Assembly: GCA_963810915.1 (NCBI GenBank)
Contig: CAWEPH010000006.1
Coordinates: 939,030 to 1,003,029, forward strand
Direction: 5' to 3'
Length of the DNA stretch: 64,000 nucleotides
Source of the DNA: an uncultured Actinomycetes bacterium
Lineage (GTDB): Bacteria > Actinomycetota > UBA4738 > HRBIN12
Each line of letters begins with the position of its first letter. The first letter of the stretch is position 1. The notes beneath the pieces were generated by a model. It was not told the origin of the DNA and made no database searches. It worked only from the letters and a program-made list of their open reading frames with translations. Shown here in pieces: positions 15,701-63,044 of this stretch. Both the position numbers and the translations under genes were made by a program.

Positions 15701-15701
15701 C

Positions 15702-17060: not shown

Positions 17061-17061
17061 G

Positions 17062-19760: not shown

Positions 19761-19761
19761 G

Positions 19762-21211: not shown

Positions 21212-22549
21212 TGGAACGTCCCGAGGTCCAGTTCGCGAGGGCGTCCGACGGCGCGTACCTCGCCTATCAGACCTTCGGGAGCGGTCCTATCGACATCTTC
21301 TGGCAGGAAGAGTTCCTCGCCTTGGTCGACCAGTTCTGGGACTCCCCACCGGAGCGCGCGTTGCACGAGGGATTGGCCGAGTACGGCCGCGTGACCATCT
21401 ACGATCGGAGAGGCACGGGCTCTCGAGCCGCAACGTGGCGCCCGGCAACCTCGAGACCCAGGTCGCGGACACCCTCGCCGTCCTCGATGCTCAAGGCATC
21501 GAGCGCGCGGTCTTCGGTGGGATCCTCGAATGTGGAGCCGCGAACGCGCTGCTCGCCGCCACCTACCCGGACCGCGTCCAGGCGCTCCTGTGGATGACGC
21601 CTGTTCCTCGGACGACCACGACGTCGGACTACCCATGGGGAGTCGGACCCGAGTACGTCGAACGCGAGCGGAGATCCTCGAACGCTGGGGGACGTTACGA
21701 TGGGCTCGCGAGTTCGTCGAGATGAACTCGATGGTGATGGGCGGACCGTGGGCAAGCGGAGGAGTACATCCGGTTCATCACGAGAGCGAGCCGCAGGACC
21801 TGCACGCCCGACGTCGCGAAGGAGCTCAGCCGCATCTGGTACGACACCGACATCCGGGGCATCCTCCCGACGATCCAGGCACCGATGCTGCTGGTGACCT
21901 CCGAGGACGACTGACGACCTGGAATTAGCAGGCTCCGTCGCCGAGCGAGTTCCTCTCGCCGAGATCAGAACGTTCCCGGGTCCGTACCTCGAGATCGAGG
22001 ACTTCGCCTCGATCCATTCTGCGATCAGCCGATTCATCGGCGCCGAGCGGCCGCCTCTGGGCCTCGATTCCGTGCTCGCGACGGTGCTGTTCACGGACAT
22101 CGTCGGGTCGACCGAGCGCGGGGCCGCACTGGGGGACTGCGGCATGGCAGGAGATCCACGAACGCCACGACAGGATCGTGCGGGGCGAGCTCGAACGCCA
22201 TCGTGGCCGTGAGATCAAGCGCACGGGCGACGGCTTCCTCGCGACGTTCGACGGACCTGCACGCGGTGTGCACTGCGCCCGGGCGATCGCCGAGGAGATG
22301 CAGACCCTCGGGATCGAGATCCGCGCAGGGCTCCACACCGGGGAGATCGAACTCGACGCCGACGACATCGCGGGGCTCACGGTTTCGATCGGCGCCCGCG
22401 TGAGCGCGAAGGCCGGTCCGTCCGAGGTCCTGATCTCCCAGACCGTGAAGGATCTGATCGCAGGTTCGGGCCTCTCGTTCGAGGATGCGGGCGAGCACGA
22501 GCTGAAGGGCGTCCCGGACGTGTGGCACCTCTATCGGGTGGTCGACTGA
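21211..22549 (+). pseudogene. Paralog 7: hydrolase-cyclase fusion with multiple frameshifts
   Basis: Recognisable pieces sit in at least four frames: MERPEVQFARASDGAYLAYQ..., ...AVLDAQGIERAVFGG..., [21 protein letters not shown], and [26 protein letters not shown]...HLYRVVD. Confidence 0.65.
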
Positions 22550-23854
22550 GTGGACACCCCGGAGACGCGGTACGCGAAGGCGCCCGACGGGGTCTCGATC
22601 GCGTACCACGTCGTGGGCGACGGACCCATCGACCTCATCTGGCTCCACGCCTTCATGGGAGGGCTGGAGGTCATCTGGGAACACGAGGCGATGCGGTCGC
22701 TCACGACCAAGCTCACATCCTTCGCCCGCGTGATCAGGCACGACATGCGCGCGACGGGCCTCTCGAGCCGCGCGGCCGAGCTCCCCGACCTCGAGACGCA
22801 GGTGCAGGATGCGGCGGCGGTGCTCGACGCGGTTGGCTCTCGTTCGACCGTCATCTTGGGAGCGGGCCCCGGAGCGCACGCCGCGTCGCTGTTCGCGGCC
22901 ACCTACCCCGATCGCACCCGGGCGCTCGTCCTCTGGGACTTCTACGCGTGGGCCGGCAACGTGTTCCGCCCCACCGACCTCGACCTCCTGAGCCGGACCT
23001 GGGGCACCGAGGCGTCGGCCGCCGCCGCGATGGCCCAGGTGGCCCCATCGATGATCGACGACCGCGAGTTCCTCCGCTGGTACGCCAAGGTCCAGCGCCA
23101 CTTCGTGCCCCCCGACGTCGCCGCCGAGCTCATCCAGAGCGCGATCGACACCGACATCCGGCCCGTCCTACCCGTGATCCACGTCCCCACCCTGGTGTTG
23201 GCCCGAGGATGGTCCAACCACGAGAAGGATCGCGACGTGGCCCAGACGATCGAGGGGTCGACGTTCCTCCTGCTCCCGGGCTCGGACCGGGCGACCTTCG
23301 CCGGCAATCAGGACGACCTCGTCGGCGCGGTCAGGGACTTCGTCGGAGGTGGTCCAGCCGCCAGGTCGGGGCAGACCCTTCTGCGAGCCGTGTTGTTCAC
23401 CGACATCGTGGGGTCAACCGAGCATCTCGCGCGGGTCGGAGATCAGGCCTGGCGGGAGCTGATCGTCGCGCACGACGATCGCTCCCGACGCGCGATCGAA
23501 CGACACGGGGGCCACATCGTCAAGAGCACGGGAGACGGCGTGCTCGCGACGTTCGAGGGACCCGCGCAGGCCGTGCGTGGGGCGCAGGAGGTCGCGGCAT
23601 CGCTCGAGGAGCTGGGACTCGAGATCCGCGCGGGGGTCCACGTAGGCGAGATCGAGACCATCGGCGACGACGTCACGGGCGTGAGCGTGAACGTCGCGGC
23701 GCGGGTCGCGGCGATGGCGGGCGCCTCGGAGGTCCTCGTCTCCTCGACGGTGAAGGACCTGACCCCGGGATCGGGCCTCACCTTCGAAGACGCGGGGGAG
23801 CACGAGCTGAAGGGCGTCCCCGACACGTGGCACCTCTACCGGGTGATCCTGTGA
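22550..23854 (+). CDS. Paralog 8: hydrolase-fold + class III cyclase fusion (most divergent; canonical Asn retained in VNVAARV)
   Basis: 434 aa, intact, GTG start adjacent to the paralog 7 stop. FTDIVGSTEH, KSTGDGVLATFEGPAQAVRGAQ, RAGVHVGEIE, GVSVNVAARVAAMAG. Confidence 0.8.
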   Translation: MDTPETRYAKAPDGVSIAYHVVGDGPIDLIWLHAFMGGLEVIWEHEAMRSLTTKLTSFARVIRHDMRATGLSSRAAELPDLETQVQDAAAVLDAVGSRSTVILGAGPGAHAASLFAATYPDRTRALVLWDFYAWAGNVFRPTDLDLLSRTWGTEASAAAAMAQVAPSMIDDREFLRWYAKVQRHFVPPDVAAELIQSAIDTDIRPVLPVIHVPTLVLARGWSNHEKDRDVAQTIEGSTFLLLPGSDRATFAGNQDDLVGAVRDFVGGGPAARSGQTLLRAVLFTDIVGSTEHLARVGDQAWRELIVAHDDRSRRAIERHGGHIVKSTGDGVLATFEGPAQAVRGAQEVAASLEELGLEIRAGVHVGEIETIGDDVTGVSVNVAARVAAMAGASEVLVSSTVKDLTPGSGLTFEDAGEHELKGVPDTWHLYRVIL

Positions 23855-29503: not shown

Positions 29504-32656
<3,153 letters not shown>

Positions 32657-32678
32657 GGCCGACGCGATCCTTCCGTGG

Positions 32679-33110
32679 TCACTCTTCGACTTCGGTCTCG
32701 GTCCCGTACAGCTCCGACGCGCCTTGGGTGACGACCTCCATCCCTGAGGGCGGACCCTCCGAGAGGTACGCGCGATCCCCGCGGATGTGGTCGACGACGA
32801 TCGGTACGCGCACGTACGTGAGCGGCTCTGGGTTCGTGTACGCCCAGGTGTCGCCGGTCGCTGTGTAGAACACCGCGGCGTAAGGCATCACCGTTTCCGA
32901 GCCCACCGCGACGACGGGATCGGCCTCGATGTCCACCCGCTCGACCGCCTCCGCGGTCAGCGTGATGCGCGAGGTCTCCGACCCCTCGATCGCCTCGAGG
33001 GTGGCCGGCTCGTCGATCGCCTCCTCCTCCTCGGCGACGTGTGCGCACGCCGACAGCAACAGACCGCAGAAGATCAGGAGCCCTGCCATCCATCGACGAC
33101 CATGCGGCAT
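32679..33110 (-). CDS. Small lipoprotein between the two RND genes (possible truncated periplasmic adaptor-like protein)
   Basis: Signal plus lipobox (LLLSAC), an acidic linker, then beta-rich ~100 aa. Family not identified. Confidence 0.4.
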   Translation of the reverse strand: MPHGRRWMAGLLIFCGLLLSACAHVAEEEEAIDEPATLEAIEGSETSRITLTAEAVERVDIEADPVVAVGSETVMPYAAVFYTATGDTWAYTNPEPLTYVRVPIVVDHIRGDRAYLSEGPPSGMEVVTQGASELYGTETEVEE

Positions 33111-33123
33111 CGCGGCCCTCCTC

Positions 33124-36100
33124 CTATGAACTCGTGAGCTCGATTGACTCGACGTCGGTGAGATCGATCGTCTGCTCGGCGAACACCGTCGTGAGGTCGG
33201 GTTCCGAGCGTGCCCCGAAGCGCTTGTAGAGCGCGGGGACGATGAACAGCGTGAGCAGTGTGGTCGAGACCAGCCCTCCGAGGACCACCACGGCCATCGG
33301 CTGCACGATCTCGAGCCCCGCGATCCGTCCTGCGATCGCCAGGGGCGCGAACACGAGGGCCGTGGTGAAGACCGAGGTCATCACGGGCGAGAACCGTTCC
33401 CCCGCTCCGCGCAGGACGAGTTCGTCGCCGAAGGCCTGGCCCTCATGCCGCTCGAGGTGCTGCGCATGCCGGATCTGCATGAGGGCCTGACGGGCGGCGA
33501 GCCCGAGGATCGCGAGGAACCCGGCGACGGACCCGATCGAGACGGCTCGTCCGTCGACCAGCGCGGCGACCGCGCCGCCGGAGAGGCTGAGGGGGAGCAT
33601 CAGGAAGATCAGCGCCGCCAGGCGCCAGTTGCCGATGGCCGCCTGCACCAGCAGGAGGACGGCGATCGCGGCGGCGATCGCGAAGCCAAGCGCCTGCCGG
33701 TCCGCTGCCCTGCCGTCCGCGTAGTCTCCGACGAGGGCGGCGTGATACTCCATCGGGAACTCGACCTGGCCGAGACCGGCCTGTACGTCGTCGGTGATGG
33801 CCCCCAGGTCACGACCCGATGTGGCGGCGGTGACGTCGATGCTTCTGGAGACGTCCACGTGCCGGATGACCGTGGGGCTCGATCCGATCCGCACGTCGGC
33901 CACATCGCCCAACCGAACCTGCCCGCCGGCGGGGGTGTCGATCGCGAGATCCTGGACGCTGGAGAGATCGTGGCGAACCTCCGGCGTTCCCCACACCACG
34001 ACGTCGAACACCTTCTGATCGTCGAAGAGGCTGCCGACCTGGATGCCGGACAGCAGCGTCGCGGCCGCCCGCCTGACATCGCCCGGCACGATCTCGTACC
34101 GCTCGGCCGCATCCAGGTCGACCTCGATCTCGAGGGTGGGCTCCTCGGACTGGGCGGCGACCCGTGGGTCCTCGATCCCGTCGATCCCGGAGAGGACCTG
34201 CCGCACCTCCTCGGCCTTGCTGCGCAGGATCCCCAGGTCCTGCCCGAAGATCCGCACGGTGATGGGATCGTTCGACCCCCCCAGGACCTGATCGATCCGT
34301 GCGGAGGGGTAGGTCACCACGTCGCGGCGAAGCCCTGGATAACCGTGAACGACCTCTTCGATCGAGGCCCTGGTCGCGTCGTAGTCGGCCCCGGGGTCGA
34401 TGGTGACCCACAACTCGCTCGCCTCCGTGCCGACGACCTGATCCGACAGGAGTGCACGCCCCGCATGTCCGCCCACGTTCAGCACCCCGGGAACGGCGCG
34501 GATCTCGTTGCTCATCAGCGCCGTGACCCGGTCCATCTCGGTGAGGGAGGTGCCCGGTGGGCCACTCAGTCGTACAAGCAGGTCCGTGTCCTTGAACTCG
34601 GGCGTGAACGACCGTCCGAGGAAGGGCACGGCGAGGAGTCCGACCAATAGGAGCCCCCCCGCCAGGACGAACGCCGGACGCGCCGAACGGAGCACGCGCG
34701 AGACGCCTCGCTGGTACCGGGGCCGCAGCGAGCGAACGATCGGGGACTCGCGGACCTCGGTCGGCGCCTTGGCGAGCAGCGTCAGTCCGAGCGCCGGCGT
34801 CACCAAGAGGGCGACCGACATCGACGCCACCACCGCCACCCCGTAGGCGATCGCGATCGAGGGGACGAACGCCCCGAACGCCCCTCGCGTGAAGAAGACC
34901 GGAACGAACACGACGAGCGCGATCAGGACGGCATACAGGCCGGCGGTGCGCATCTCCATGAAGGCGTCGCGGACGGTCAGCGCGAGGAGACCCGTGCCGC
35001 CGTTGCCGCTCGCGCGGCGTTCACGCATGCGTCGGGCGACGTTCTCCGTGTCGCCCACCGCATCATCGATCACGACGACGAGCGCCAGGATCAGGCCGGC
35101 CACGATCATGGAGTTGAACGTCGTGTGGGTCCAGGTCAGCACGAGCACCGCCGTCAGCAGCGACGTGGCCATCGCGACGACGGCGATGAGCGCGCTGCGC
35201 CATGAGAAGAGGAAGGCCCCGAGGGCGAGCAGCAGGAGCAACGCACCGATGATCAGCGCGGTCGTGAGGTTGTGACTCGACGACTCGATGTAGGTCCCGG
35301 GTCGGAAGAGCGATGTGTCGATGGTGATCCCCGAGAGACCGGGGCGAAGGTCGTCGAGCGCCGCCTCGACCCCGCGCGTCACGTCCAGCGGGTTCGCGCC
35401 TGGGAGCTTCTCGATGACGAGCAGCAGGCCGGGCCCGTCCGAGAACACGGCGTCGCCGATGAGCGGTTGATGATCCACGACGATGTCGCTGACGTCGCCC
35501 AGGCGGAGCGGCGCTCCTCCGGTGTCCTGGACGATCACCTTCGCGAGGTCGGCCGGCGAGGCGAAGGGCACACCGTGCTGGATGCCGAATCGCTGGTTCG
35601 GGGTCTCGATGATCCCCCCGGTGCCCGGCGTGGATGCCTCGACGAAGGTCAGGTTCGAGACGAACTGCGCGTTCGCGGTCGTCTCGATGATCTGCTGCAG
35701 GGACACGTCGTTCGCCTGGAGGCGCGCGGGATCGACCAGCACCTGTAGCTGCCGCTCGCGCTGTCCCCAGACGGACACGTTGGCCACCCCCGGAACCCCC
35801 ATCAGCCGGGGTCGGATGTTCCAGCGGGCGAGCAGGGACATGTCGATCAGCGAGAGCTCTTCCGAGGTGAGGCCGACCATCATCACGCGGCTCGTCGACG
35901 AGACCGGCTGGAGCATCTGGGGAGGCTTCGAGACCTGTGGCAGCGCGTGGGCCTGTGTGAGGCGCTCCTCCACGACCTGACGGGCGTCCAGGATGTCCGT
36001 GCCGGGCTCGAAGACCATCTCGATCGAGGAGAGCCCGGGGAGCGAAGCCGACTTGATCGTGTGGAGGAACGCGACACCGTTGAGGAGGTCCTGCTCGAGC

Positions 36101-36303
36101 GGGACGGTGATCAGCTCCTCGACCTCCGCCGCGGAAAGCCCGAGCGCTTCCGTCTGGACCTCGACCGTCGGGGGCGTGAACTCCGGCAGGACGTCCTTGG
36201 GCACGCTCCGGAGCTGCGCGATGCCCAGAGCCATCAACAGCGCTGCGAGGAACAACATGAACCCACGCGCCTTGAGGCTCGATCCGATGATCCACCTCAT
36301 CAT
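33124..36303 (-). CDS. RND efflux transporter permease subunit, paralog 2
   Basis: About 1060 aa from MMRWIIGSSLKARGFML.... Clear paralog of 29504..32656 across its full length. Confidence 0.85.
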   Translation of the reverse strand: MMRWIIGSSLKARGFMLFLAALLMALGIAQLRSVPKDVLPEFTPPTVEVQTEALGLSAAEVEELITVPLEQDLLNGVAFLHTIKSASLPGLSSIEMVFEPGTDILDARQVVEERLTQAHALPQVSKPPQMLQPVSSTSRVMMVGLTSEELSLIDMSLLARWNIRPRLMGVPGVANVSVWGQRERQLQVLVDPARLQANDVSLQQIIETTANAQFVSNLTFVEASTPGTGGIIETPNQRFGIQHGVPFASPADLAKVIVQDTGGAPLRLGDVSDIVVDHQPLIGDAVFSDGPGLLLVIEKLPGANPLDVTRGVEAALDDLRPGLSGITIDTSLFRPGTYIESSSHNLTTALIIGALLLLLALGAFLFSWRSALIAVVAMATSLLTAVLVLTWTHTTFNSMIVAGLILALVVVIDDAVGDTENVARRMRERRASGNGGTGLLALTVRDAFMEMRTAGLYAVLIALVVFVPVFFTRGAFGAFVPSIAIAYGVAVVASMSVALLVTPALGLTLLAKAPTEVRESPIVRSLRPRYQRGVSRVLRSARPAFVLAGGLLLVGLLAVPFLGRSFTPEFKDTDLLVRLSGPPGTSLTEMDRVTALMSNEIRAVPGVLNVGGHAGRALLSDQVVGTEASELWVTIDPGADYDATRASIEEVVHGYPGLRRDVVTYPSARIDQVLGGSNDPITVRIFGQDLGILRSKAEEVRQVLSGIDGIEDPRVAAQSEEPTLEIEVDLDAAERYEIVPGDVRRAAATLLSGIQVGSLFDDQKVFDVVVWGTPEVRHDLSSVQDLAIDTPAGGQVRLGDVADVRIGSSPTVIRHVDVSRSIDVTAATSGRDLGAITDDVQAGLGQVEFPMEYHAALVGDYADGRAADRQALGFAIAAAIAVLLLVQAAIGNWRLAALIFLMLPLSLSGGAVAALVDGRAVSIGSVAGFLAILGLAARQALMQIRHAQHLERHEGQAFGDELVLRGAGERFSPVMTSVFTTALVFAPLAIAGRIAGLEIVQPMAVVVLGGLVSTTLLTLFIVPALYKRFGARSEPDLTTVFAEQTIDLTDVESIELTSS

Positions 36304-36435
36304 GATGCCCGAACCTCCCTCGACGGATCGCCCGATGCGCACACTAGGAACGGGGAGGGTGCCGAACATCGTCGTGTGGGATGAATCCCGTCGTCCCCGG
36401 AGACGACAGGCGCTCGCCTCGCGGAGGTGGTCGAC

Positions 36436-39909: not shown

Positions 39910-41541
39910 TCAGGCGCGGTAGACGACGTCGCCGCCAACGATCGTGTGGGTGACGCGCACGTCGAGGATCCGGCGCGGCTCGGCCTCGAGCGCGAACAGA
40001 TCCTCGGATAGCACGACGAGATCCGCGTACTTGCCCACGGTCACCGAACCGCGGTTCGACTCGGCGAAGCACGCTCCGGCGCCCCCCATCGTGTAGGCGC
40101 GCAGCGTGCTGGCGAGGTCGAGGGTCTCCTCCGGGATCCAGGCATCGGAGCCATCGAGGTTCGCGCGCGTGAGCGCCGTGTAGATGCCCACCATCGGATC
40201 CATCTCCGCCACGTTCCAGTCGCTCGAGAACGTGAGCCTGGCGCCCGCGTCCCGGAGGCTCCGGAACGCCCACGCGTAGCGCCAACGCTCTGGGCCGACG
40301 TTCGCGCGCCAATCCGCCACGATCTCGGGTGCGCAGTGCCGCGGCTGCATGCACGGCATCACGCCGAGCGCGCCGAACCGCGGCACCTCGGCGGCGTCCA
40401 AGCATTCGGTGTGCACCATGAGGTGGCGGCGATCGCCCGGGCCGTTGGCTGCGCGCGCGGCCTCGATGCCGTCGAGCGCGGTGCGGAGCCCACGGTCGCC
40501 GGTCCCGTGGATGTGGCACTGGAACCCGCGGCCCTCGAGATCGGTGATCAGCTCGGCGAACTCCCGCGGCTGCCAGAAGAGCTCGCCGCGCTCGCCGGGA
40601 CGGTTCGCGTACGGCTCGAGCATGGCGGCGGTCCACGGCTCGATCACGTCGTCGATGTAGAGCTTGATGGGCCCCACTCGCAGCCGGTCGTCGTCCAGAC
40701 GCGCGCGCGCGGCCTCGAACTCGCGCACCTCGGCCTCGGAGGTCCCCACCGGGTGGAACATCGCCGCGACGAGACGCGAGCGCAGCCGTCCTTCCTCGCG
40801 GGCACGCTCGAAGATCCACAGGTCGTCGGGCGAGTTCTGCGGCTCCACGACCGTGGTGATGCCGAAGGCAGTGGCCATGTCGAGGCTCTCGATCGTGCGC
40901 TCGTACTGGAGCGCCCGCTCGTACCCGGGGAGGACGCCCTCCAGCGCCGCCTGTCCGGTGCGCGAGATGCCCATCACGGCGAACCCCGTCACGAACCCGG
41001 TCGGCTCCCCCGTCGCGTCCAGCTGCACGTGACCGAACGGCACCGTCGTCGCGTCGCGCGTGATCCCGAACGCCCGCATCGCCTCGCGGTTCATCCAGAC
41101 GTTGTGCGCGTCGTAGCTGAACAGGAACGCCGGCCGGCCACCCGTGAGGCCGTCGAGGTCCTCCCAGGTGGGAAGGCGTCCGCCGGGCATGGCGCCGTAG
41201 TTCCAGCCCACGCCCTCGATCCAGGTGAGCTCCGGATGGGCGTCGGCGTGGGCGCGCACCCGGGCGCGGAGCTCGTCGAGGCTAAGGGCGCCCGCGAGGT
41301 CGACCTCCGCCGGGTTCGACCCCAGCCGCACGTGGTTGTGCGAGTCGATGAACCCGGGCAGCACCGTCGCGCCGCGCGCATCGAGCACGTCGGTGTTGGG
41401 TCCGGCGAGGACTCGCGCCTCCTCGTCCGCTCCCACCCAGGCGACGCGCTCCCCCTCGATGGCGACGGCGCTCGCCTCGGGCATGGCGTCATCCATCGTG
41501 TGGACGCGCGCGTTCACGATCAGGAGATCGGGTTCCAAGCA
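39910..41541 (-). CDS. Amidohydrolase-family (Amidohydro_3-like) metal-dependent hydrolase
   Basis: LIVNARVHTMDD...GFIDSHNHV (HxH metal site) ...HIHGTGD... with a C-terminal DxH-type motif. TTG start at 41541 with GGAGGA 5 nt upstream. The long 5' ORF extension was rejected. Confidence 0.7.
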   Translation of the reverse strand, partial: CLEPDLLIVNARVHTMDDAMPEASAVAIEGERVAWVGADEEARVLAGPNTDVLDARGATVLPGFIDSHNHVRLGSNPAEVDLAGALSLDELRARVRAHADAHPELTWIEGVGWNYGAMPGGRLPTWEDLDGLTGGRPAFLFSYDAHNVWMNREAMRAFGITRDATTVPFGHVQLDATGEPTGFVTGFAVMGISRTGQAALEGVLPGYERALQYERTIESLDMATAFGITTVVEPQNSPDDLWIFERAREEGRLRSRLVAAMFHPVGTSEAEVREFEAARARLDDDRLRVGPIKLYIDDVIEPWTAAMLEPYANRPGERGELFWQPREFAELITDLEGRGFQCHIHGTGDRGLRTALDGIEAARAANGPGDRRHLMVHTECLDAAEVPRFGALGVMPCMQPRHCAPEIVADWRANVGPERWRYAWAFRSLRDAGARLTFSSDWNVAEMDPMVGIYTALTRANLDGSDAWIPEETLDLASTLRAYTMGGAGACFAESNRGSVTVGKYADLVVLSEDLFALEAEPRRILDVRVTHTIVGGDVVYRA

Positions 41542-41613
41542 TCCTCCTCGGGCTCGGAAGAGGTCATAGGCTTGCACGGTTGCCTCCCCCCCGCGAGTCG
41601 AAAGGACTTCCCC

Positions 41614-42516
41614 GTGGCCAAACGCAAGAAGCAGATCGAGCGGATCAAGCGGTTCACCGTCCCGCTGCGGGTCGAGCCGGGGAGCGCCGTGCGGCTCCCG
41701 AAGGGCTTCAACCCGCGCTTCAAGGCGGGGCTCCGCAAGAAGGACGCCAAGGACCTGCTGAGCCGCGGCGTGGAGATGCTCGCGGACTACCAGACGCGGC
41801 TCGCGGCCCAGGACACCTGGGCGGTCCTGGTGGTGCTGCAGGCGATCGACGCCGCCGGCAAGGACGGGACGATCAAGCACGTGATGAGCGGCGTGAACCC
41901 GCAGGGTGTGTCGGTGCGCTCGTTCAAGGTGCCCTCGACGGAAGAGCTCTCCCACGACTACCTGTGGCGCTATCAGAAAGCGCTCCCCGAGCGCGGGCAG
42001 ATCGGCATCTTCAACCGCTCGCACTACGAGGAGACGCTCGTCGTCCGCGTGCATCCGGAGCTCCTCGAGCGTCAGCTCCTGCCCACGGACCCCAAACCCA
42101 ACCAGGTCTGGAAGCGCCGGTACCGGGAGATCAACGAATGGGAGCACTACCTCGTGGAGAACGGCGTGAAGGTCGTGAAGCTCTTCCTGAACCTGTCCAA
42201 GGAGGAGCAGCGCGAGCGGTTCCTGGCGCGCATCGACGAGCCGGAGAAGAACTGGAAGTTCTCGGCCGCGGACGTGCGGGAGCGGGTCTTCTGGGAGGAC
42301 TACCAGGCGGCGTTCTCCGACATGCTCACGCACACGAGCACGCCGTGGGCGCCCTGGCACGTGATCCCGGCGGACCGCAAGTGGTTCGCGCGGGTCGCCG
42401 CCGCGGGCGTGATCATCGAGGCGCTGGCCGACATCGATCCCCGGTTCCCCGAGGTGAGCGAGGAGGACCGGGCAGCGCTGCTGGAGGAGCGCGCGATGCT
42501 GGTGGCCGAGCGCTGA
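41614..42516 (+). CDS. Polyphosphate kinase 2 (PPK2) family polyphosphate:nucleotide phosphotransferase
   Basis: Walker A-like (VLQAIDAAGKDGTIKHV) and PPK2 lid motifs (FNRSHYEETLVVRVH, WKRRYREINEWE). Confidence 0.75.
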   Translation: MAKRKKQIERIKRFTVPLRVEPGSAVRLPKGFNPRFKAGLRKKDAKDLLSRGVEMLADYQTRLAAQDTWAVLVVLQAIDAAGKDGTIKHVMSGVNPQGVSVRSFKVPSTEELSHDYLWRYQKALPERGQIGIFNRSHYEETLVVRVHPELLERQLLPTDPKPNQVWKRRYREINEWEHYLVENGVKVVKLFLNLSKEEQRERFLARIDEPEKNWKFSAADVRERVFWEDYQAAFSDMLTHTSTPWAPWHVIPADRKWFARVAAAGVIIEALADIDPRFPEVSEEDRAALLEERAMLVAER

Positions 42517-42561
42517 GGCTCCCTGTCCGGCCCGACCGCCGGTTGCGGTAGGGTCCGCCGC

Positions 42562-44577
42562 GTGAGCGAGGGAGCGGGATCGAGCCCGTCGCGCGTGGCG
42601 TTGGCGTGGCTGCTCGTCGCGGCGGCGGTCGCGGTGGCGGCGTGGGCGGTCGCCCTGGGACTTCGCGACGGCGGGACGACCCAGGACACCTGGCTGTTCG
42701 TCGTGGCGGCCGGCTCCGTCACGACGGCCGCCGTCGGTGCTCTGATCGGGGGGAAGACCGGGAACGCGACGGGCTGGCTCCTCGCGGTCGGCGGCGTTGG
42801 GCTCGGGGTAGGGGTCCTGCTGGGCCAGGCGGCGTCCGGGTGCGGCGAGCCGGCCGCGCTGACCGCCATCCCGGCAACGTTCTCCGCCACGCCCGGCTGG
42901 CAGGTCGCCGGCTCCGTCGCCGGGGTCGCCGTCTGGGGCGCGTGCCTGGTCACCGCCGTGACCTTCTATCCGTTCGGCCCGTCGAGGATGCGGGACGGGT
43001 GGGCTGCAGAACGCCAATCGCTCGTGGCACCGGCATTGGCGTGGACGGGCGCCGTCGTGGCGACCGTTGCCGCCTCGGCTGCCGATGGGCGCGTCGCACC
43101 CTTCGGGGCCACCTCCGACCGGCTATGCGGGACGCCCTTCCCCGGGACGACGCGCCCCCCCGCACTCACCGCCGGCGTGGTCCTCCTGGCCCTCGGCGCG
43201 GCCGCGGCGCTGGCGATCGCCTGGCGGCGGGAACGCGCGGTGTCCGGGTCGGATCGGGCGCAACTGCTCCCCGTGGTGGCGACCGCGACCGTCGCCGCGC
43301 TCGCGCTCGCCGCCACGCTCCTGATCACCGAGCCGGGACCCCTGTGGGGAGACTCGTGGCCGTTCGTGGTGGCTTGGGCGCTCGCGGCCGTCGCCCTCCC
43401 GCTGGCGGTCGCCGTCACGATCGTCCGCTCGCACGCGTTCGGCATCTACCGGTTCGTGGGATTCATGGCGGACTACCGGATCTGGACGGCCGCCCTCGGG
43501 GTGGGCGCGATCGCGGCCGTGCTGGGGCTCACCTGGCTCATCGCCTGGATCCTCGGTGTCGATGATCTTCCCGTCGCCGTCGCGGCCGTGGCGCTCGCGA
43601 TGGGCGCGGCGGTGTATCCGTCCTGGCGGGGATGGCAGGCCCGGGTGGACGCGCGTTACGGCCAGCACCAGGAGGACCCCGCGGAGACCCTCGAGCGCCT
43701 CACGGCCGAGGTCGACGATCCCGCCCAGGTCCGAGGACCGGTCTTCGATCTCCTGGCCCGGGTGGCGCCGATGGTGGTGGTCCAGGGAGAGGCGGGGATG
43801 CGATTCCTCGTGTCCACCGACGATCGCGAGGTGGGCCGCCACACCTTCGTGCACGGGGGCTACGACCTCGGCACGATGCGCTGCGCGATGGACCTCCTCG
43901 CAGCGTCGCGGGGGGTCGTGCCGGGGATCGTGCTCGCAGGCGGCGCGGTCCTCGACATCGGAGCGAACATCGGAACCTCCGTGGTGCCGTTGCTCCGACT
44001 CTTCGGTGCGGACCGAGGGATCGCGGTCGAGCCCGCGCCCGGCAACGTGGAGCTCCTCCTGCTCAACATCGAACTGAACGATCTCGCCGGTCGCGTCGAC
44101 GTGATCCCGGTGGGAGCTTCGGACCGCGACGGGTTCCTCGAGCTCGCGCTCTCGGCCGAGAACTCGGGCGACCACCGGATGCGGGTCGGGACCGATGACG
44201 TGTTCGAACGCTCCAGCGTGACGGTACAGGTCCATCGCGTGGACACGTTGGTGGAGACGGGCGCGCTCGACCCGTCCGATCTCACGCTCGTCTGGTTGGA
44301 CGTGCAGGGCCACGAGGGGCACGTGCTGAGCGGCGCCACGTCGATCCTTCGCGGATCCGTCCCCCTGGTGAGCGAGTTCTGGCCCTCGGAGATGCGCCGC
44401 ACCGGCGGACTCCTCGCGTTCACGGACGCGGTCTCGGAGCACTTCGGACGCATGATCGATCTGCGCCGCACCCAGGACGAAGGGGCGACGGTGGACGCGC
44501 CGGCCTCGGAGATCGCGACGTGGACCCAGCGGTACGAAGACGAGGGCGCGTTCACGGACCTCCTGCTCCTCCCGTAG
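42562..44577 (+). CDS. Polytopic membrane domain (~370 aa, at least 8 TM) fused to C-terminal FkbM-family methyltransferase domain
   Basis: The C-terminal ~250 aa carry the FkbM motif LDIGANIGTSVVPLLRLFG...IAVEPAPGNVELLLLNIELN. Confidence 0.65.
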   Translation: MSEGAGSSPSRVALAWLLVAAAVAVAAWAVALGLRDGGTTQDTWLFVVAAGSVTTAAVGALIGGKTGNATGWLLAVGGVGLGVGVLLGQAASGCGEPAALTAIPATFSATPGWQVAGSVAGVAVWGACLVTAVTFYPFGPSRMRDGWAAERQSLVAPALAWTGAVVATVAASAADGRVAPFGATSDRLCGTPFPGTTRPPALTAGVVLLALGAAAALAIAWRRERAVSGSDRAQLLPVVATATVAALALAATLLITEPGPLWGDSWPFVVAWALAAVALPLAVAVTIVRSHAFGIYRFVGFMADYRIWTAALGVGAIAAVLGLTWLIAWILGVDDLPVAVAAVALAMGAAVYPSWRGWQARVDARYGQHQEDPAETLERLTAEVDDPAQVRGPVFDLLARVAPMVVVQGEAGMRFLVSTDDREVGRHTFVHGGYDLGTMRCAMDLLAASRGVVPGIVLAGGAVLDIGANIGTSVVPLLRLFGADRGIAVEPAPGNVELLLLNIELNDLAGRVDVIPVGASDRDGFLELALSAENSGDHRMRVGTDDVFERSSVTVQVHRVDTLVETGALDPSDLTLVWLDVQGHEGHVLSGATSILRGSVPLVSEFWPSEMRRTGGLLAFTDAVSEHFGRMIDLRRTQDEGATVDAPASEIATWTQRYEDEGAFTDLLLLP

Positions 44578-45688: not shown

Positions 45689-45819
45689 CGGCTCCTCCCG
45701 GGGTCGCAGGGGAGGCGAGCCTGGAGGCAGCCACCGTAGGCCGTCGGACTGCTCTGGGGCCGTGACGCAGGTCACGTCGGAGCGGCGCAGACGCGCGTCT
45801 CGCCCCGTAGGCTGGGCCG

Positions 45820-47055
45820 GTGCCGCCGCGTCCCTCCCCCAGCGCAGCCGTCCGCCGTCGACGCACGTTCGCGGTCCTGATCGCCGCGCTCTTCCTGGTG
45901 CTCGGCGGCGTGGTGTTCTTCGCACCGCACGCGTCGGCGCCACTCCCCACCGGGACGGCCGCCGCGCACGGCAGTGTCACGCCGAGCGCCTCGTCGACGT
46001 CCGCGCCCGCCGAGGCCGCCCCCACGGCTTACCTCGCGTGGATGTCGGGCGGGTTCCCGCCCGCGGTGCGTACCGGGGTCCGCTCCCTCCCGCACATCAC
46101 GCACTCGGTCGTCGTTGCCGGCGACACGCGTTGGATGACCGCCTCCCACGCCGCCGACGGGTCCGTCGCAGATGATCCACGGGACCCACTCGGCATCCCG
46201 ATCGACGCGTTCAGCGTGGACCCCGGTGCGTACGCGCCGTTCCTGCCCGCGGACCTGCGCGATGCCGTCGTCAGCACGCTGCGCGCGGGCGAGGGGGTGA
46301 TCGGGCAGGCCAGTGCGGATCTGCGAGGCATCGGGGCGGGCGGCACGATGACGTTCGGGGACCGGACCGTGAAGATCGGCCTCGTCGCACCCGACGATGC
46401 GGTCGGCTGGAGCGAGCTCCTCGTCTCCCGCGACGTGGGCCGGTCTCTCGGGATCCTCGACGAGCGCTACCTGCTCGCGCAGATGCAGCCGCAACCCACC
46501 GATGCCGCGTTCGGCAGGTTGATCGGATCGCTCCTGCCCGGCGGGACCCCGCTACGGGTGCAGCACACCGGCGAGACGCCGTACCTGCGTGTGGCGAGCG
46601 GCGTGAACCCGCCCGTCGTGATGAAGGAGACGTTCGGCGAGTTCGCGGCGCACCCCGACCCATCGGATCCCGCCTACCTCACGATCGATCCGGCCTGGGT
46701 CCGCGCGCGCATCCAGACGAGATCCGTGCCGCTGTTGGGTCGGATCACGTGCAATCGCGCCCTCTTCCCGATGTTGATCGCGTCGCTGAACGATGTGCGG
46801 CAAGCGGGCCTCGGGAACCTGATCCATACCAACTCCGGCTGCTACGCCGCGCGGACGGTGGCCCGCAGCCCCACGGCGCCGCCCTCCAACCACGCGTACG
46901 GAGCGGCCGTCGACATCAACGCGCCGGAGAACCCGTATGGCGCCACCCCGACGATGGATCCACGGGTCGTGCGGATCTTCGAGGCCCACGGATTCCTCTG
47001 GGGCGGGGACTTCCTGATCCCCGACGGGATGCACTTCGAGTACGGCTCGGGCTGA
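45820..47055 (+). CDS. Membrane-anchored peptidase M15 (LAS-family D-Ala-D-Ala carboxypeptidase/VanY-like) domain protein
   Basis: N-terminal TM. C-terminal SNHAYGAAVDIN...GFLWGGDF...DGMHFEY is the H-x6-D / H motif set of the M15 zinc peptidase fold. Confidence 0.65.
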   Translation: MPPRPSPSAAVRRRRTFAVLIAALFLVLGGVVFFAPHASAPLPTGTAAAHGSVTPSASSTSAPAEAAPTAYLAWMSGGFPPAVRTGVRSLPHITHSVVVAGDTRWMTASHAADGSVADDPRDPLGIPIDAFSVDPGAYAPFLPADLRDAVVSTLRAGEGVIGQASADLRGIGAGGTMTFGDRTVKIGLVAPDDAVGWSELLVSRDVGRSLGILDERYLLAQMQPQPTDAAFGRLIGSLLPGGTPLRVQHTGETPYLRVASGVNPPVVMKETFGEFAAHPDPSDPAYLTIDPAWVRARIQTRSVPLLGRITCNRALFPMLIASLNDVRQAGLGNLIHTNSGCYAARTVARSPTAPPSNHAYGAAVDINAPENPYGATPTMDPRVVRIFEAHGFLWGGDFLIPDGMHFEYGSG

Positions 47056-47172
47056 ACGGCCCTGAGCCCGCGGGCCGCTCGCGGACCCGATGCGCCCGAG
47101 CGACCTGGGACCAGCGGCCCCGGGCGTTCATCCGGCCTCCCGGTATCCCTTGTAGTAGGAGACAGGAGGTGC

Positions 47173-47799
47173 GTGATGGTCCGCACTGCCGCGAAGATCG
47201 ATCTGAAGCACGAACTCGGCGACCTCTACAAGGCGCGGAGCCAACCGATGGTGGTCGAGGTGCCGGAGCTGGACTTCCTGATGATCGACGGCCATGGCGA
47301 GCCCGCCGGGCCGGCGTTCCAGGAGTCCGTGGACGCGCTCTACGCGGCAGCCTACGGGTTGAAGTTCCGCGTTCGGGCGTTGGACGGTGCGGACTACCGG
47401 GTGATGCCCCTGGAGGGGCTCTGGTGGATCCCGAACGCGCGCGTTTGGGACTTCGAGGACAAGTCCGACTGGGACTGGACGCTCATGATCGTCCAGCCCG
47501 AGATCGTCACCGCCGATCTCGTCCGAGAGGTGATGGCCGCGGTCCGCGTCAAGCGTGGTTCCCCGGCCCTCGAGCGTGTGCGGCTCGAGGCGTACGAGGA
47601 AGGCCTGTCGGTCCAGACGATGCACGTCGGCCCATGGGAGGCCGAGCGTCCCACCCTCGAACGGTTGCAGTTGTTCATCGCGGAGTCCGATCTGGTGCCC
47701 GTCGGCAAGCACCACGAGATCTACCTCAGCGACCCCGGCCGCGTGGCGCCGGATCGGATGCGGACGATCGTGCGCCAGCCCGTCGTACGCAGGACCTGA
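47173..47799 (+). CDS. GyrI-like small-molecule-binding domain protein
   Basis: 208-aa ORF. Family assignment from overall pattern is moderate. Confidence 0.45.
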   Translation: MMVRTAAKIDLKHELGDLYKARSQPMVVEVPELDFLMIDGHGEPAGPAFQESVDALYAAAYGLKFRVRALDGADYRVMPLEGLWWIPNARVWDFEDKSDWDWTLMIVQPEIVTADLVREVMAAVRVKRGSPALERVRLEAYEEGLSVQTMHVGPWEAERPTLERLQLFIAESDLVPVGKHHEIYLSDPGRVAPDRMRTIVRQPVVRRT

Positions 47800-58711: not shown

Positions 58712-60172
58712 ATGGAGGGGTTCATCAGGCGCGACGCGGCCAGCCGAACGGACCGATCTCGAGGAGGTTGGCGTTGGCTCATCGTTCCGTCCATCCTCGT
58801 CGTCGCCCTGGCCGCCCACCTCACGTCGATACAGAGCCTGCCGGGGGCGATCGCGGCGCTGTCATCCGCTCGACGGGTCCCACCGAACATCGTCCTCATC
58901 GTGACCGACGACCAACGAGCCGACACGCTTTGGGCGATGCCGAACGTGCGTGCATTGCTCGCCGGTCCTGGCATCGAGTTCACCAATGGCTTCGTGGTGA
59001 ATCCCCTCTGCTGCCCGAGTCGTACATCGATCCTGACCGGTCGTTACTCCCACTCGACGCGGGTCTACACGAACCACGACGGGCACAAGTACGGGGGGAT
59101 GCACGCGTTCGACGACCACGACACCATCGCCACGCGCCTGGATGCGCATGGGTACCGAACCGGCCTGTTCGGCAAGTACCTCAACGGCTATAAGGGCTCC
59201 TACATCCCGCCGGGTTGGGACCGCTGGTTCTGCACGTACCATTCTGGTGCCTACTACGACTACGTGGCCCAAGACGGGCCCCGGGTGGTGCGGTACGGAC
59301 ACGCGCCGCGTGACTACGGAACGGACGTCGTGGCTCGGCAGACCACGGCGTTCATCCGTGGAACGGACCCCTCCCATCCCCTGTTCGCCTACGTGGCCCC
59401 TCACGCACCTCACGGGCCGGCCATCCCGGCCCCCGGTGACCGACACGCTTTCGCCCGCCACGTGGCGCGACCAGCCGCCTACGATGAGGCAGACGTTTCC
59501 GACAAGCCAACGTACGTTCGATCGCACCCTCGACTGACGCGACGAGGCGGCAGGATCGCTCGTTTCCGCCGTCAGCAACTCGAGACGCTCAGGGCCATCG
59601 ACAGGATGGTCGCCAAGATCGTCCACGCCCTCGAAGACACCGGACGGCTCCGCGACACGCTCATCGTCTTCACCTCAGACAACGGGTATCTCTGGGGTGA
59701 GCATCGCCTCGTGGGGAAGAACGCCCCGTACGACGAGAGCATCCGTGTCCCCTTCGTCGCGCGATACGACGCAGCCATAGCGACGCCGCGTCGTGACGCG
59801 CACCTCGTCCTCAACATCGACCTCGCCCCAACGTTCGCCAACGCAGCCGGCGTGAGCCTTCACGACCCTGACGGCAAGGATCTCGGAGACCTCTTCGCCA
59901 GTCCGGCCGCGCCATGGAGGTCGACCTTCCTGATCGAGCATCTCCGCGACGACCACACGAAGCTCCCTTCTTATTGTGCCGTACGTTCGGCGACTGCGGT
60001 CCTCGTCTGGTACGAGGACGGTGAGCGGGAGCTCTACGATCTCCTCATGGACCCCGAGGAGCTCTACAACCTCGCGTCAACCGGCCAGCTGCAGGAGGAG
60101 CGTCAAGCACTCGCTGGGGAGATGCGGAGGCTGTGCTCCCCGCCGCCCCCCGGGATGTCGTTGGCGCGCTAG
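58712..60172 (+). CDS. Sulfatase (arylsulfatase/N-acetylglucosamine-6-sulfatase-like), membrane anchored/secreted
   Basis: PNIVLIVTDDQRAD, formylglycine motif CCPSRTSILTGRY, and C-terminal sulfatase motifs. Confidence 0.8.
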   Translation: MEGFIRRDAASRTDRSRGGWRWLIVPSILVVALAAHLTSIQSLPGAIAALSSARRVPPNIVLIVTDDQRADTLWAMPNVRALLAGPGIEFTNGFVVNPLCCPSRTSILTGRYSHSTRVYTNHDGHKYGGMHAFDDHDTIATRLDAHGYRTGLFGKYLNGYKGSYIPPGWDRWFCTYHSGAYYDYVAQDGPRVVRYGHAPRDYGTDVVARQTTAFIRGTDPSHPLFAYVAPHAPHGPAIPAPGDRHAFARHVARPAAYDEADVSDKPTYVRSHPRLTRRGGRIARFRRQQLETLRAIDRMVAKIVHALEDTGRLRDTLIVFTSDNGYLWGEHRLVGKNAPYDESIRVPFVARYDAAIATPRRDAHLVLNIDLAPTFANAAGVSLHDPDGKDLGDLFASPAAPWRSTFLIEHLRDDHTKLPSYCAVRSATAVLVWYEDGERELYDLLMDPEELYNLASTGQLQEERQALAGEMRRLCSPPPPGMSLAR

Positions 60173-60228
60173 TCCTCGTCCCAGGAGACCTCCGGACCCG
60201 CGACTCGGACCGAGGCCGACTATCCTTC

Positions 60229-60322
60229 CGGTGGAGGCGTCAGGGTTCCTGGTGGGCCCCGCGGTCTTCAACACCGTAGTGGGGGCGCGAGCTCCCAGGC
60301 GGGTTCGATTCCCGTCCGCCTC
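60229..60322 (+). tRNA. selC: tRNA-like gene with anticodon UCA and long variable arm: candidate selC (tRNA-Sec)
   Basis: Acceptor halves GGAGGCG (60230-36) and CGCCTCC (60314-20) are perfectly complementary. Canonical T-arm GCGGG-TTCGATT-CCCGT. Anticodon stem GCGGT/ACCGT with loop CTTCAAC (U33, anticodon UCA, A37), identical in context to E. coli selC (CUUCAAA). Short 4-nt D-loop (GTTC) with a 4-6 bp D-stem. GNRA-capped variable stem (GGGGGC-GCGA-GCTCCC). Discriminator G. Hand-folded only. Confidence 0.5.
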
Positions 60323-60323
60323 C

Positions 60324-63044
60324 GCGATGACCGACACCGATGCCACCTATCCGGTCCACCGGGAGGCCGACGTCGTCCTGCGCGACGGCAGTACCGTGCA
60401 CATCCGTCCCGCGCGCGCGGAGGACCAGGAACCGCTCGAGGACTATTTCATCGGCCTGTCCGACGAGAGTCGCCGCCTTCGGTTCTGGGGGGCGTCGGTA
60501 GACGTTCGCGAACAATCATCCCGAGCCGTCAATATCGACTACGCGGATCACCTGACGCTGCTCGCGTTCGAGGGGGCGGAGAAGCCCGTCGTGGTGGGCG
60601 GCGCGCAGTACATCCGCGAGCCGGGCAGCGCCCGCGCCGAGGTGGCGATGAGCACCGCCGACCACTTCCAGGGACGCGGGCTGGCCTCGCTGTTGATCGC
60701 GCAGCTCGCGCAGGCGGCGGACGAACACGGCATCCGGTTCTTCTTCGCCGAGGTGCTCCCCGAGAACCACAAGATGATCGACGTCTTCCGTCGCACCGGC
60801 TTCCCGGTCTCGATCCACGCGAAGCCCGGCGTGGTCGAGGTGGAGTTCCCCACGATCATCACCGACGCGACGGCGGAGCGTTACGGCGACCGCGAGCGGA
60901 TCGCCGCCGCGAACGCGGTCAGGACCTTCCTCCAGCCCTCGTCGATCGCGGTGATCGGCGCCTCGCGCGACCCGGCCACGATCGGCGGCAGGCTCCTGAA
61001 GAACCTGCTGGGGCAGCCGTTCTCCGGCGTGGTGTATCCGGTGAACCCCACGGCGGACCACGTCCAGGCCGTGCCGGCGTTCGCCTCGGTCACGGACATC
61101 CCCGACGAGGTCGATCTCGCGATCGTGGCGGTGCCCGCCGCCGGGGTCCTCGATGTCGCACGGCGATGCGCGGAGAAGGGCGTCAAGGGCCTCGTCGTGA
61201 TCTCAGCCGGGTTCGGCGAGACCGACGACGAGGGTCGCGCTCGCCAGCACGAGCTCGTGGAGATCTGCCGGGCCACGGGGATGCGGCTGATCGGGCCCAA
61301 CTGCATGGGCGTGATCAACACTGACCCCGAGGTGCGCATGAATGGCACCTTCGCGCAGGCCTATCCGCCCGAGGGACATGTGGCCTTCATGTCGCAGTCC
61401 GGGGCGCTGGGGATCGCGGTGATCAACATGGCCACGGCCCTCGGCATGGGCCTGTCGTCGTTCGTCTCCGTGGGCAACAAGGCCGACATCTCCGGCAACG
61501 ACCTGCTGTGCTACTGGGACGAGGATCCGAACACCGACGTGGTGCTCCTGTATCTGGAGTCGTTCGGGAACCCGCGGCGCTTCGGACAGCTGGCCCGCCA
61601 GATCGGCAAACGCAAGCCGATCGTGGCCGTCAAGAGCGGTCGCAGCGCCGCGGGGCAGCGCGCGGCAAGTTCGCACACCGGGGCGCTGCTCTCCTCGTCC
61701 GACACCACCGTGGACGCGCTCTTCCGTCAGTACGGGGTGATCCGGACCGACACGCTCGAGGAGATGTTCGATGTCGCCACCCTCCTGGTGAACCAGCCCG
61801 TCCCGAAGGGGCGCAACGTGGCCATCGTCACGAACGCGGGCGGCCTCGCGATCCAGTGCGCCGACACCTGCGAGGCGCGCGGGCTCCACGTACCCGAGCT
61901 CGCCGAGGCCACCGTGGCTGAGCTCCGGACGTTCCTCCCGCCGGCCGCCGGCGTCTCCAATCCGGTGGACATGATCGCGTCGGCCTCGGGCGAGGATTAC
62001 GGGCACACGATCCGCACGGTGGCTTCGGATCCGAGCGTCGACGCCCTGATCGTGATCTACATCCCGCCGATCGAGGCCGACGCGCCGGAGATCGCGCAGC
62101 ACATGGTGGAGGCGATCGGCGCGCTCGACGAACGGATCCCCGTCCTTACGTGCTTCATGTCCTCCCGTGGCCTTCCCGACGATCTCTCGGCCCCGGGCGT
62201 GCGCATCCCTTCGTATCCCTTCCCCGAGCAGGCGGCGATCGCGCTCGCGCATGCCGCGGACCTCGGCACCTGGCGCGAGAAGCCGGAGGGCGCCGTACCG
62301 GAGTTCCCGGGGATCCGCGAGGACGAGGCGACGGCGGTCATCGCCACCGCGCTCGAGCGCGGCGAGGGGTGGCTGGAGCCGCAGGAGATCGAGCGCCTGT
62401 TCGCCTGCTACGGGATCCCGACGGCCCGCGAGGAACAGGTGCGGACGGCGCAGGAGGCCGCGGAGGCCGCCGCGGGGTTCCACGGGAAGGTCGCGTTGAA
62501 GGCCGTGGGCCCGCTCCACAAGACCGAGAGCGGTGCCGTGACGCTCGGCTTGGACGCCATGGAGGTGGCCGCGGAGGCGGAGGCGATGCGGACCCGCGTG
62601 GCGGCGGTGGGCGAGCCGTTCGAGGGCTTCCTGCTCCAGGAGATGCTCTCGGGCGGCGTGGAGATGCTCGTGGGCATGGCCGCGGATCCAGTGTTCGGGC
62701 CGATCGTCGCGGCCGGCGCCGGAGGGGTCATGGTCGAGCTCACCCGGGATGTCGCCATCCGGGTGGCTCCGCTCACCGATCTCGACGCGAGCGAGATGAT
62801 CCGCTCGCTGACCAGCTTCCCGTTGCTGGACGGGTTCCGCGGCGACGCCCCCAAGGATGTGCACGCCCTCGAAGACATCGTGCTCAGGGTCTCGGCCCTC
62901 GCGGCCGAGCACCCGGCCATCGTTGAGATGGACTGCAACCCGGTCATCGTGTTGGAACGAGGCGCGGCCGTGGTAGACGCGCGCGTCCGCGTGCGCGAGC
63001 CGAGGCCCGAGCCCCCGTTCGCCGCTCGCACGTCCGGCAGCTAG
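60324..63044 (+). CDS. Bifunctional GNAT acetyltransferase / NDP-forming acyl-CoA synthetase-like protein (Streptomyces-type Pat protein-lysine acetyltransferase architecture)
   Basis: N-terminal GNAT (...HFQGRGLASLLIAQL..., acetyl-CoA site). Then CoA-binding (SIAVIGASRDP...GGRLLKNLL), succinyl-CoA-synthetase-like and ATP-grasp domains. 906 aa, intact. Confidence 0.75.
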   Translation, partial: AMTDTDATYPVHREADVVLRDGSTVHIRPARAEDQEPLEDYFIGLSDESRRLRFWGASVDVREQSSRAVNIDYADHLTLLAFEGAEKPVVVGGAQYIREPGSARAEVAMSTADHFQGRGLASLLIAQLAQAADEHGIRFFFAEVLPENHKMIDVFRRTGFPVSIHAKPGVVEVEFPTIITDATAERYGDRERIAAANAVRTFLQPSSIAVIGASRDPATIGGRLLKNLLGQPFSGVVYPVNPTADHVQAVPAFASVTDIPDEVDLAIVAVPAAGVLDVARRCAEKGVKGLVVISAGFGETDDEGRARQHELVEICRATGMRLIGPNCMGVINTDPEVRMNGTFAQAYPPEGHVAFMSQSGALGIAVINMATALGMGLSSFVSVGNKADISGNDLLCYWDEDPNTDVVLLYLESFGNPRRFGQLARQIGKRKPIVAVKSGRSAAGQRAASSHTGALLSSSDTTVDALFRQYGVIRTDTLEEMFDVATLLVNQPVPKGRNVAIVTNAGGLAIQCADTCEARGLHVPELAEATVAELRTFLPPAAGVSNPVDMIASASGEDYGHTIRTVASDPSVDALIVIYIPPIEADAPEIAQHMVEAIGALDERIPVLTCFMSSRGLPDDLSAPGVRIPSYPFPEQAAIALAHAADLGTWREKPEGAVPEFPGIREDEATAVIATALERGEGWLEPQEIERLFACYGIPTAREEQVRTAQEAAEAAAGFHGKVALKAVGPLHKTESGAVTLGLDAMEVAAEAEAMRTRVAAVGEPFEGFLLQEMLSGGVEMLVGMAADPVFGPIVAAGAGGVMVELTRDVAIRVAPLTDLDASEMIRSLTSFPLLDGFRGDAPKDVHALEDIVLRVSALAAEHPAIVEMDCNPVIVLERGAAVVDARVRVREPRPEPPFAARTSGS

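Follow-up and report, generated by a model that had tools for sequence, protein, structure and literature searches.

A selenocysteine tRNA gene directly upstream of a protein acetyltransferase gene in an uncultured actinobacterium, with a proposed shared transcript

The selenocysteine tRNA (tRNA-Sec) of mycobacteria adopts a 7/6 variant of the fold with 13 bp, and its gene, selC, lies 11–75 nt upstream of selA, often with no Shine-Dalgarno motif, while paired-end reads show that the two genes are co-transcribed (Behra, Ramesh, Pettersson & Kirsebom, RNA Biol 2026, PMC13449736). The 13-bp acceptor/T domain of tRNA-Sec compares with 12 bp in elongator tRNAs (PMC5330540). In E. coli, selC is monocistronic and its 25-nt 5′ leader is removed by RNase P (PMC12439589). 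The 7/6 fold and a selC-led co-transcription are already published, and the tRNA described here is an unannotated member of this described kind; its one unusual feature is that the next gene begins just 2 nt past the end of the tRNA, an order also conserved in soil bacteria related to the source. Taking the whole locus together, a functional actinobacterial 7/6-type selC at 60233–60324 is very probably the right explanation, and the co-transcription with the downstream gene and the processing proposed below would go with it.

The DNA analysed is a stretch of 64,000 nt (the window; GC content ~69%) from a MAG of an uncultured member of the Actinomycetota near Gaiellales. The original prediction, made from the letters alone, had placed a tRNA-Sec with anticodon UCA at 60229–60322 and had proposed ARAGORN and Rfam family RF01852 as checks on it. 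Both were run and both assign a Sec identity far over threshold. ARAGORN, applied to the 64-kb window, reports a tRNA-SeC with anticodon tca at 60233..60325 on the plus strand (anticodon at tRNA position 36), and an Infernal/Rfam scan of the whole window returns a full-length RF01852 match (1–91/91) at 60233..60323 (+) with 72.7 bits and an E value of 5.8e-13, ~26 bits higher than the gathering score of 47. ARAGORN finds no second tRNA in the 64 kb, and the Rfam scan gives no hit to any other family. Six tested relatives score 72.4–76.4 bits against RF01852, and the 92-nt RNA has a minimum free energy of −50 kcal/mol (z = −3.1 against dinucleotide shuffles). The limits had to be shifted: the 5′ end is 60233, and the mature tRNA ends with the discriminator G, position 60324, after which CCA is not encoded. 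The segment 60233..60324 (+), 92 nt through discriminator G73, is almost certainly a tRNA-Sec(UCA) gene.

The fold was compared with fixed anchors in 85 distinct variants, the metagenome part of which comes from among the matches listed. The acceptor stem pairs GGAGGCG (60233..60239) with the CGCCUCC that precedes the discriminator (60317..60324 with G60324, matching RF01852) in seven perfect base pairs, G1–C91 to G7–C85, just as the hand fold had it. A 3-nt linker, U8-C9-A10 (60240..60242), places U8 opposite C84 and precedes the D-stem, reading U/A8, N9, N10 in the variants. Specifically, position 8 is U in 78 of the 85 variants, A in 7 and G in none; because it is never G, it does not pair with C84, and the eighth acceptor pair that an E. 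coli-type 8/5 fold would have is therefore absent. The D-arm (60243..60259) comprises a 6-bp stem, in which 60243–45 and 60247–49 pair with 60254–59, a bulged U at 60246 and the predicted short loop, UGGU (60250–53). The bulge occurs in 68 variants, including the window, and another 17 have 6 bp without it. With the bulge, the three lower D-stem pairs form in 68/68 variants (types GC, AU, GU and CG); the bulge-free register of the Rfam model was rejected, as 0/68 variants pair at one position. The D and anticodon arms are joined by an invariant C.

The anticodon arm (60261..60277; ARAGORN, variants) has a 5-bp stem and the loop CUUCAAC (60266–72), as predicted, with anticodon UCA at 60268–60270. 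Its inner four pairs form in 85/85 variants and the outermost in 61, with a mismatch in the other 24. Loop position 38 is C in six of the 85 variants, including the window, and A in the others. An A36-A37-A38 motif is needed for the i6A37 modification, and C38 may abolish that motif in the window tRNA. The long variable arm (60280..60297) is 7 bp long and ends in a GNRA tetraloop, GCGA, which bears out the prediction; 594 of 595 cells are paired across the 85 variants, with 3–6 pair types per position, and the pair U48–A65 becomes A–U in L066 and L074. The T-arm (60298..60316) is canonical, as had been claimed (GGGUUCGAUUCCC), with 5 bp (G·U, C–G, G–C, G–C, G–C) and the loop UUCGAUU, and G66–C84 (60298/60316) is a possible sixth T-stem pair in a 7/6 reading after PMC13449736. 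The predicted helices are backed by heavy covariation in the 85 distinct variants, to which the invariant G66–C84 contributes no test.

The acceptor and T stems together with G66–C84 (7 + 5 + 1) make 13 layers; read as 8/5, the eighth layer would be a U·C mismatch. Because G66 and C84 are both invariant, covariation does not separate these two readings. A 13-layer acceptor/T helix would mark the RNA off as tRNA-Sec from elongator tRNAs, and the 7/6 reading can be extended to the window. The 7/6 architecture of tRNA-Sec would then reach beyond mycobacteria into uncultured, deep-branching lineages of Thermoleophilia-like type, with covariation that includes a bulged D-stem mis-registered by the Rfam model. 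The window tRNA also has the 6-bp D-stem with 4-nt D-loop that forms the SelA recognition element, and the long variable arm and discriminator G73 that serve as SerRS identity elements.

Downstream of the tRNA lies pat (60327..63044, +), which encodes a protein acetyltransferase of the actinobacterial type, 905 aa long, in which a GNAT domain at the N-terminus precedes CoA_binding, Succ_CoA_lig and ATP-grasp_5 domains (Pfam). The original prediction was right about the close abutment of the two genes but put the gap at 3 nt; the spacer after the discriminator is the 2-nt CG (60325..60326), followed by ATG 60327. The junction ...CCUCC-G-CG-AUG is identical in the window and in L014, L016, L017, L018, L024, L026 and L028. 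A scan of a genome collection with Pat gave 80 loci, nearly all of them in MAGs of uncultured Actinomycetota, Thermoleophilia or Gaiellales; a few loci at the far end (55–57% identity) are labelled Dehalococcoidia, Gemmatimonadetes or Firmicutes, and the closest is L014 (97% identity; MFD02159.bin.1.80). In 14 of the 80 Pat loci a tRNA-SeC lies upstream of pat on the same strand, adjacent in 10 and at 1.9–6.3 kb in 4. Fifteen pat-linked loci were used to compare the tRNA and the −10 region. Across them the tRNA, including UCA, is near-invariant, while Pat identity falls to 66–70% and the upstream DNA is unrelated.

In a neighbour-joining tree of Pat, selC-pat linkage is restricted to one clade, with exact abutment in two subclades, and the linkage is lost in Gaiellales proper. 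L029 and L037, which carry kb-scale insertions, fall within an abutting subclade. In the sister lineages L006 and L034, as in the more distant L027, a hairpin-rich spacer of 45–70 nt separates selC from pat, with GC hairpins at L006:9928-9980, L034:9941-9990 and L027:9907-9980. L034 carries 'GCGATG' directly 3′ of the tRNA and 'TACGATG' again at the actual pat start; its spacer has the look of a short insert in a junction that was ancestrally abutting.

Several other features surround these loci. In the Gaiellales loci L005, L013 and L036, a tRNA-Lys/tRNA-Glu/tRNA-Val group stands upstream of pat instead of selC, and the −10 boxes of the group imply 2–6-nt leaders. A GGACTAGTGACA-like motif containing the palindrome ACTAGT lies ~35–50 nt upstream of the tRNA in L024, L029, L037, L017, L028 and L018/L026, between a divergent PadR gene and selC, and may be a PadR operator. 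A genomic island at selC was considered and rejected: no locus has a duplicated tRNA 3′ end (20-mer, ≤2 mismatches), and the insertions that part selC from pat in L029, L037, L066 and L074 hold ordinary cargo genes, with no integrases and no att-like repeat.

As the original prediction had stated, the window holds no recognizable Sec machinery: Pfam on ~50 window ORFs finds no SelA, SelB, SelD or formate dehydrogenase. No sel genes are found in the flanks either, to ~73 kb on the right (about +9 kb) and over 10 kb on the left, so that neither selA, selB or selD nor a selenoprotein gene with a UGA codon turns up in the ~83 kb of window and both flanks. Three sets of ORFs that share a frame and have only TGA between them (40012–44577, +; 45811–47799, +; 55386–51709, −) were examined as selenoprotein genes and proved to be unrelated neighbouring genes (PPK2/FkbM, M15 peptidase/GyrI-like and kinase/Lgt). 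Elsewhere in the window, Pfam identifies a tandem array of at least six paralogous alpha/beta-hydrolase and adenylate/guanylate cyclase domain fusions (12891–23854, +; LipJ-like), interrupted by a truncated copy at 19717–20280, and tandem large genes for AcrB/AcrD/AcrF-family RND transporters at 29504–32887 (−) and 33124–36435 (−), with ACR_tran scores of 720 and 585 bits.

Relatives of the tRNA were sought in metagenomes with its invariant 3′ 27-mer, which gave at least 120 contigs and 77 distinct full-length variants. Neighbouring sel genes were located, and only located, by tblastn with approximate E. coli SelA, SelB and SelD queries; matches to these approximate queries reach 40–50% identity and E values down to 1e-83. 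A cluster of selD (divergent), selC, selA and selB surrounds a tRNA of the same subfamily in ~40 of the at least 120 contigs, and SelD from one of these contigs clusters with those of Nocardioides, Gordonia, Mycobacterium and Arthrobacter. SelB is annotated in cultured Gaiella occulta. The conservation of the tRNA and its linkage to sel genes together identify the subfamily as bona fide Actinomycetota tRNA-Sec. Judging from these gene orders, selC in the source clade has separated from the sel cluster and now stands directly before pat.

The wider set contains further variants of the tRNA and of its surroundings. In the Gaiellales MAG locus L060, selA-selB lies at 19791–22685 (−), 7–10 kb downstream of pat, and ARAGORN finds no tRNA-Sec in the 22.7 kb. 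The metagenome loci L085, L176 and L180 carry a tRNA-Sec of the same subfamily with loop CUCUAAA and the amber-reading anticodon CUA, in L176 with selA downstream; tRNA-Sec with anticodon CUA is known from Geodermatophilaceae (PMC5330540). At loop position 33, where U is near-universal, L084, L143 and L200 have C (loop CCUCAAA), and selA-selB follows the tRNA in L084. L094 and L100 show two tRNA-Sec 3′ halves ~5 kb apart on one contig, which may reflect either duplication of selC or a repeat of the att type.

The selC product quite probably functions in Sec decoding in the source organism, an assignment that draws on purifying selection and on the linkage of the subfamily to sel genes rather than on sel genes of the genome itself. 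The strongest competing explanation is that selC is an exapted relic, in which Sec decoding has been lost and a tRNA-shaped element is kept only as the promoter-proximal processing module, or 5′ leader, of pat. The empty ~83 kb would fit such a relic, as would the detachment from the sel cluster, the tight and conserved selC-pat fusion, the A38C variant of the anticodon loop, and the fact that the closest metagenome variants, among the matches listed, also have no neighbouring sel genes. However, none of the 15 pat-linked copies departs from the anticodon UCA, U33 or A37, while drift is seen in the variable loop and at other positions, and the tRNA and its promoter stay intact in L029, L037, L066 and L074, where 2–6 kb insertions of unrelated genes uncouple selC from pat. 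In addition, the SerRS, SelA and SelB identity elements are all kept (G73, variable arm, 6-bp D-stem with 4-nt loop, 13-layer helix). Detachment alone is no evidence of loss, because E. coli selC is likewise remote from selAB (PMC13449736). We regard the relic as improbable and a decoding tRNA-Sec as the preferred reading.

Less probable still, and by our estimate very unlikely, is a look-alike of tRNA-Sec with another identity, such as an allo-tRNA or a UGA suppressor that inserts Ser or Cys. Measured against the E. coli 8/5 model, U8 opposite C84, the bulged D-stem and an anticodon stem of 5 rather than 6 bp would all be compatible with such an RNA. Allo-tRNAs (8/4 or 9/3; PMC5389517) combine a lengthened acceptor and a shortened T-stem in a 12-bp acceptor/T branch, whereas the window tRNA has a 7-bp acceptor, a 5–6-bp T-stem and 13 layers. 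Furthermore, the RF01852 score lies 26 bits over threshold, members of the same subfamily are physically linked to selA, selB and selD, and the published analysis of the mycobacterial counterpart treats it as tRNA-Sec (PMC13449736).

The tRNA gene has been overlooked in public annotation because a protein gene is drawn over it. The pat frame is open from 59934, and the listed ORF 59976–63044, which the original prediction had called spurious and which does cross the tRNA, starts at GTG 59976. In the source MAG, the public gene call P0001 (937 aa) takes GTG 60231 as its start, with the whole tRNA translated as 'MEASGFLVGPAVFNTVVGARAPRRVRFPSASA', and two more distant homologues, P0034 and P0069, show the same overcall artefact. 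Pat homologues are mostly 897–907 aa long with the N-terminus M..YP(A/V)H.E.DVVLRDG, and ATG 60327 is the only start that fits this conserved N-terminus; we treat 59976..60326 (+), with its GTG starts at 59976 and 60231, as a non-gene 5′ extension of the pat frame. That the 937-aa annotation is right and the segment is a chance-folding N-terminal extension (MEASGFLVGPAVFNTVVGAR...) has a negligible probability, for although an open frame crosses the tRNA and gene callers picked it in three lineages, most homologues begin at the ATG, the nucleotide conservation of the segment far exceeds that of pat, the same 92 nt are found detached from pat or beside selA and selD, and the Rfam E value is 5.8e-13. 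The drawing of a pat ORF over selC is a systematic error in at least three soil Actinomycetota MAG lineages, and it hides a marker gene of Sec use.

A −10-like hexamer, TATCCT (TANNNT), at 60221..60226 (+) is a putative promoter for selC at a conserved offset. Since 6 nt separate the hexamer from tRNA base 1, transcription is predicted to start at G60233. TANNNT starts at −12 or −13 from tRNA base 1 in 15/15 pat-linked loci, whose upstream sequence is otherwise unrelated (17–50% identity), and in 55 of 80 metagenome copies among the matches listed; the background frequency for the two offsets is 0.0014. Other tRNA genes in related MAGs have TANNNT at −14 to −18. The nucleotide at N-1 is C or U in 70 of 79 copies among the matches listed. 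A start within 1 nt of G1 is favoured over other positions, though by no wide measure. A scan of 59800–60700 for E. coli-type two-hexamer promoters and intrinsic terminators found none, and such a scan is uninformative in a 69% GC actinobacterial host.

The same geometry recurs before protein genes. TANNNT lies 6–7 nt before the start codon in 6 of 43 well-supported window ORFs, against 0.76 expected, and leaderless mRNAs seem to be common in the source genome. ORFs with this leaderless promoter geometry lie at window positions 42562, 45820, 50487 (−), 51138, 53004 (−) and 63055.

For pat itself, a promoter within the tRNA was considered and set aside, the tRNA being without any TANNNT, and no Shine-Dalgarno motif was found before the pat ATG. 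From these two observations we infer that pat is transcribed through selC, and co-transcription of the two genes is quite probable. Whether pat is then translated from a processed, near-leaderless mRNA we would put at even chances or a little below.

In the mechanism that we propose, transcription would begin from the −10 box at 60221–60226, at tRNA G1 or 1 nt before, and, given a start at the mature 5′ end, little or no trimming by RNase P would be needed. The transcript would continue into pat across the 2-nt gap, with no −10 motif in the tRNA. A cut at the CCA-less 3′ end of the tRNA, of the RNase Z type, would release a pat mRNA with a 2-nt leader, which would be translated as a leaderless message, and CCA would be added to the tRNA post-transcriptionally. 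By homology with the established bacterial pathway, SerRS would serylate the tRNA, SelA with selenophosphate from SelD would convert it to Sec-tRNA, and SelB would bring Sec-tRNA to UGA codons with a downstream SECIS element. One point against an RNase Z-type cut is that Propionibacterium acnes has no RNase Z (PMC3848588).

A comparable junction is seen at a sel cluster. In the metagenome contig L171, selA (MADSRRGIP...) starts at +2 after the discriminator and overlaps an encoded CCA. At L171:736-800, and possibly in L160, CCUCCG is followed by CCAUGGCUGAC, encoding MADSRRG, so that the selA start lies over the CCA; one L171 transcript cannot yield both an intact CCA end and an intact AUG unless it is cut after the discriminator.

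More tentatively, and with the odds somewhat against it, selC may serve as a transcribed 5′ module of pat, having a 5′ end formed without RNase P and a single 3′ cut that both matures the tRNA and frees a leaderless pat mRNA. If so, the locus would parallel, in a bacterium, the tRNA punctuation of mitochondria, the synthesis of a global protein acetyltransferase would be tied to selC transcription and processing, and the same design would apply to selA in relatives such as L171. Should the individual steps hold, selC-pat would offer a simple case of bacterial tRNA processing that makes a leaderless mRNA, and would also show a bacterial tRNA whose transcript has no 5′ leader.

Compared with known systems, the window tRNA is close to that of mycobacteria, which belong to the same phylum: both have 5′ GGAGGCG, a 7-bp acceptor with a T-stem of 6 bp (here one that can extend to 6 bp), discriminator G, and a 6-bp D-stem with variation at the acceptor/D junction. 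Both selC genes have a protein gene close behind, the mycobacterial one often without a Shine-Dalgarno motif and co-transcribed. They differ in that the downstream gene is pat at 2 nt here and selA at 11–75 nt in mycobacteria, and in that CCA is not encoded here but nearly always encoded there; in 60% of mycobacteria G occupies N-1, a position taken by a pyrimidine here, where a −10 box lies 6–7 nt upstream. E. coli selC shares the anticodon UCA, the 13-bp acceptor/T domain, the 6-bp D-stem with 4-nt loop, the long variable arm, G73, a G·U first T-stem pair and a position remote from selAB, but differs in its 8 Watson-Crick acceptor pairs, 6-bp anticodon stem, loop CUUCAAA and encoded CCA. With the selD/selC-selA-selB clusters of other Actinomycetota, the locus has in common the tRNA subfamily, an identical 3′ 27-mer and the same −10 box offset, and with L171 also the +2 start of the downstream ORF after the discriminator; unlike them, the source clade has pat as the downstream ORF and no sel gene nearby.

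In Streptomyces-type PatA, a GNAT domain forms the N-terminus and the part after it resembles an NDP-forming acyl-CoA synthetase, and Pfam finds the same domain order in the window Pat; we know of no reported link between PatA and selC. In mitochondrial tRNA punctuation, tRNA and mRNA share one transcript, tRNA processing sets the mRNA 5′ end, and the mRNAs are leaderless. The bacterial tRNA-tufB operon likewise has a shared transcript, but its mRNA keeps a normal leader with a Shine-Dalgarno motif. We use both only as working analogies for selC-pat. What appears to be new, at the level of sequence, is the conserved 2-nt selC-pat fusion, the same offset before selA in a relative, and a putative promoter placed for leaderless transcription of the tRNA.
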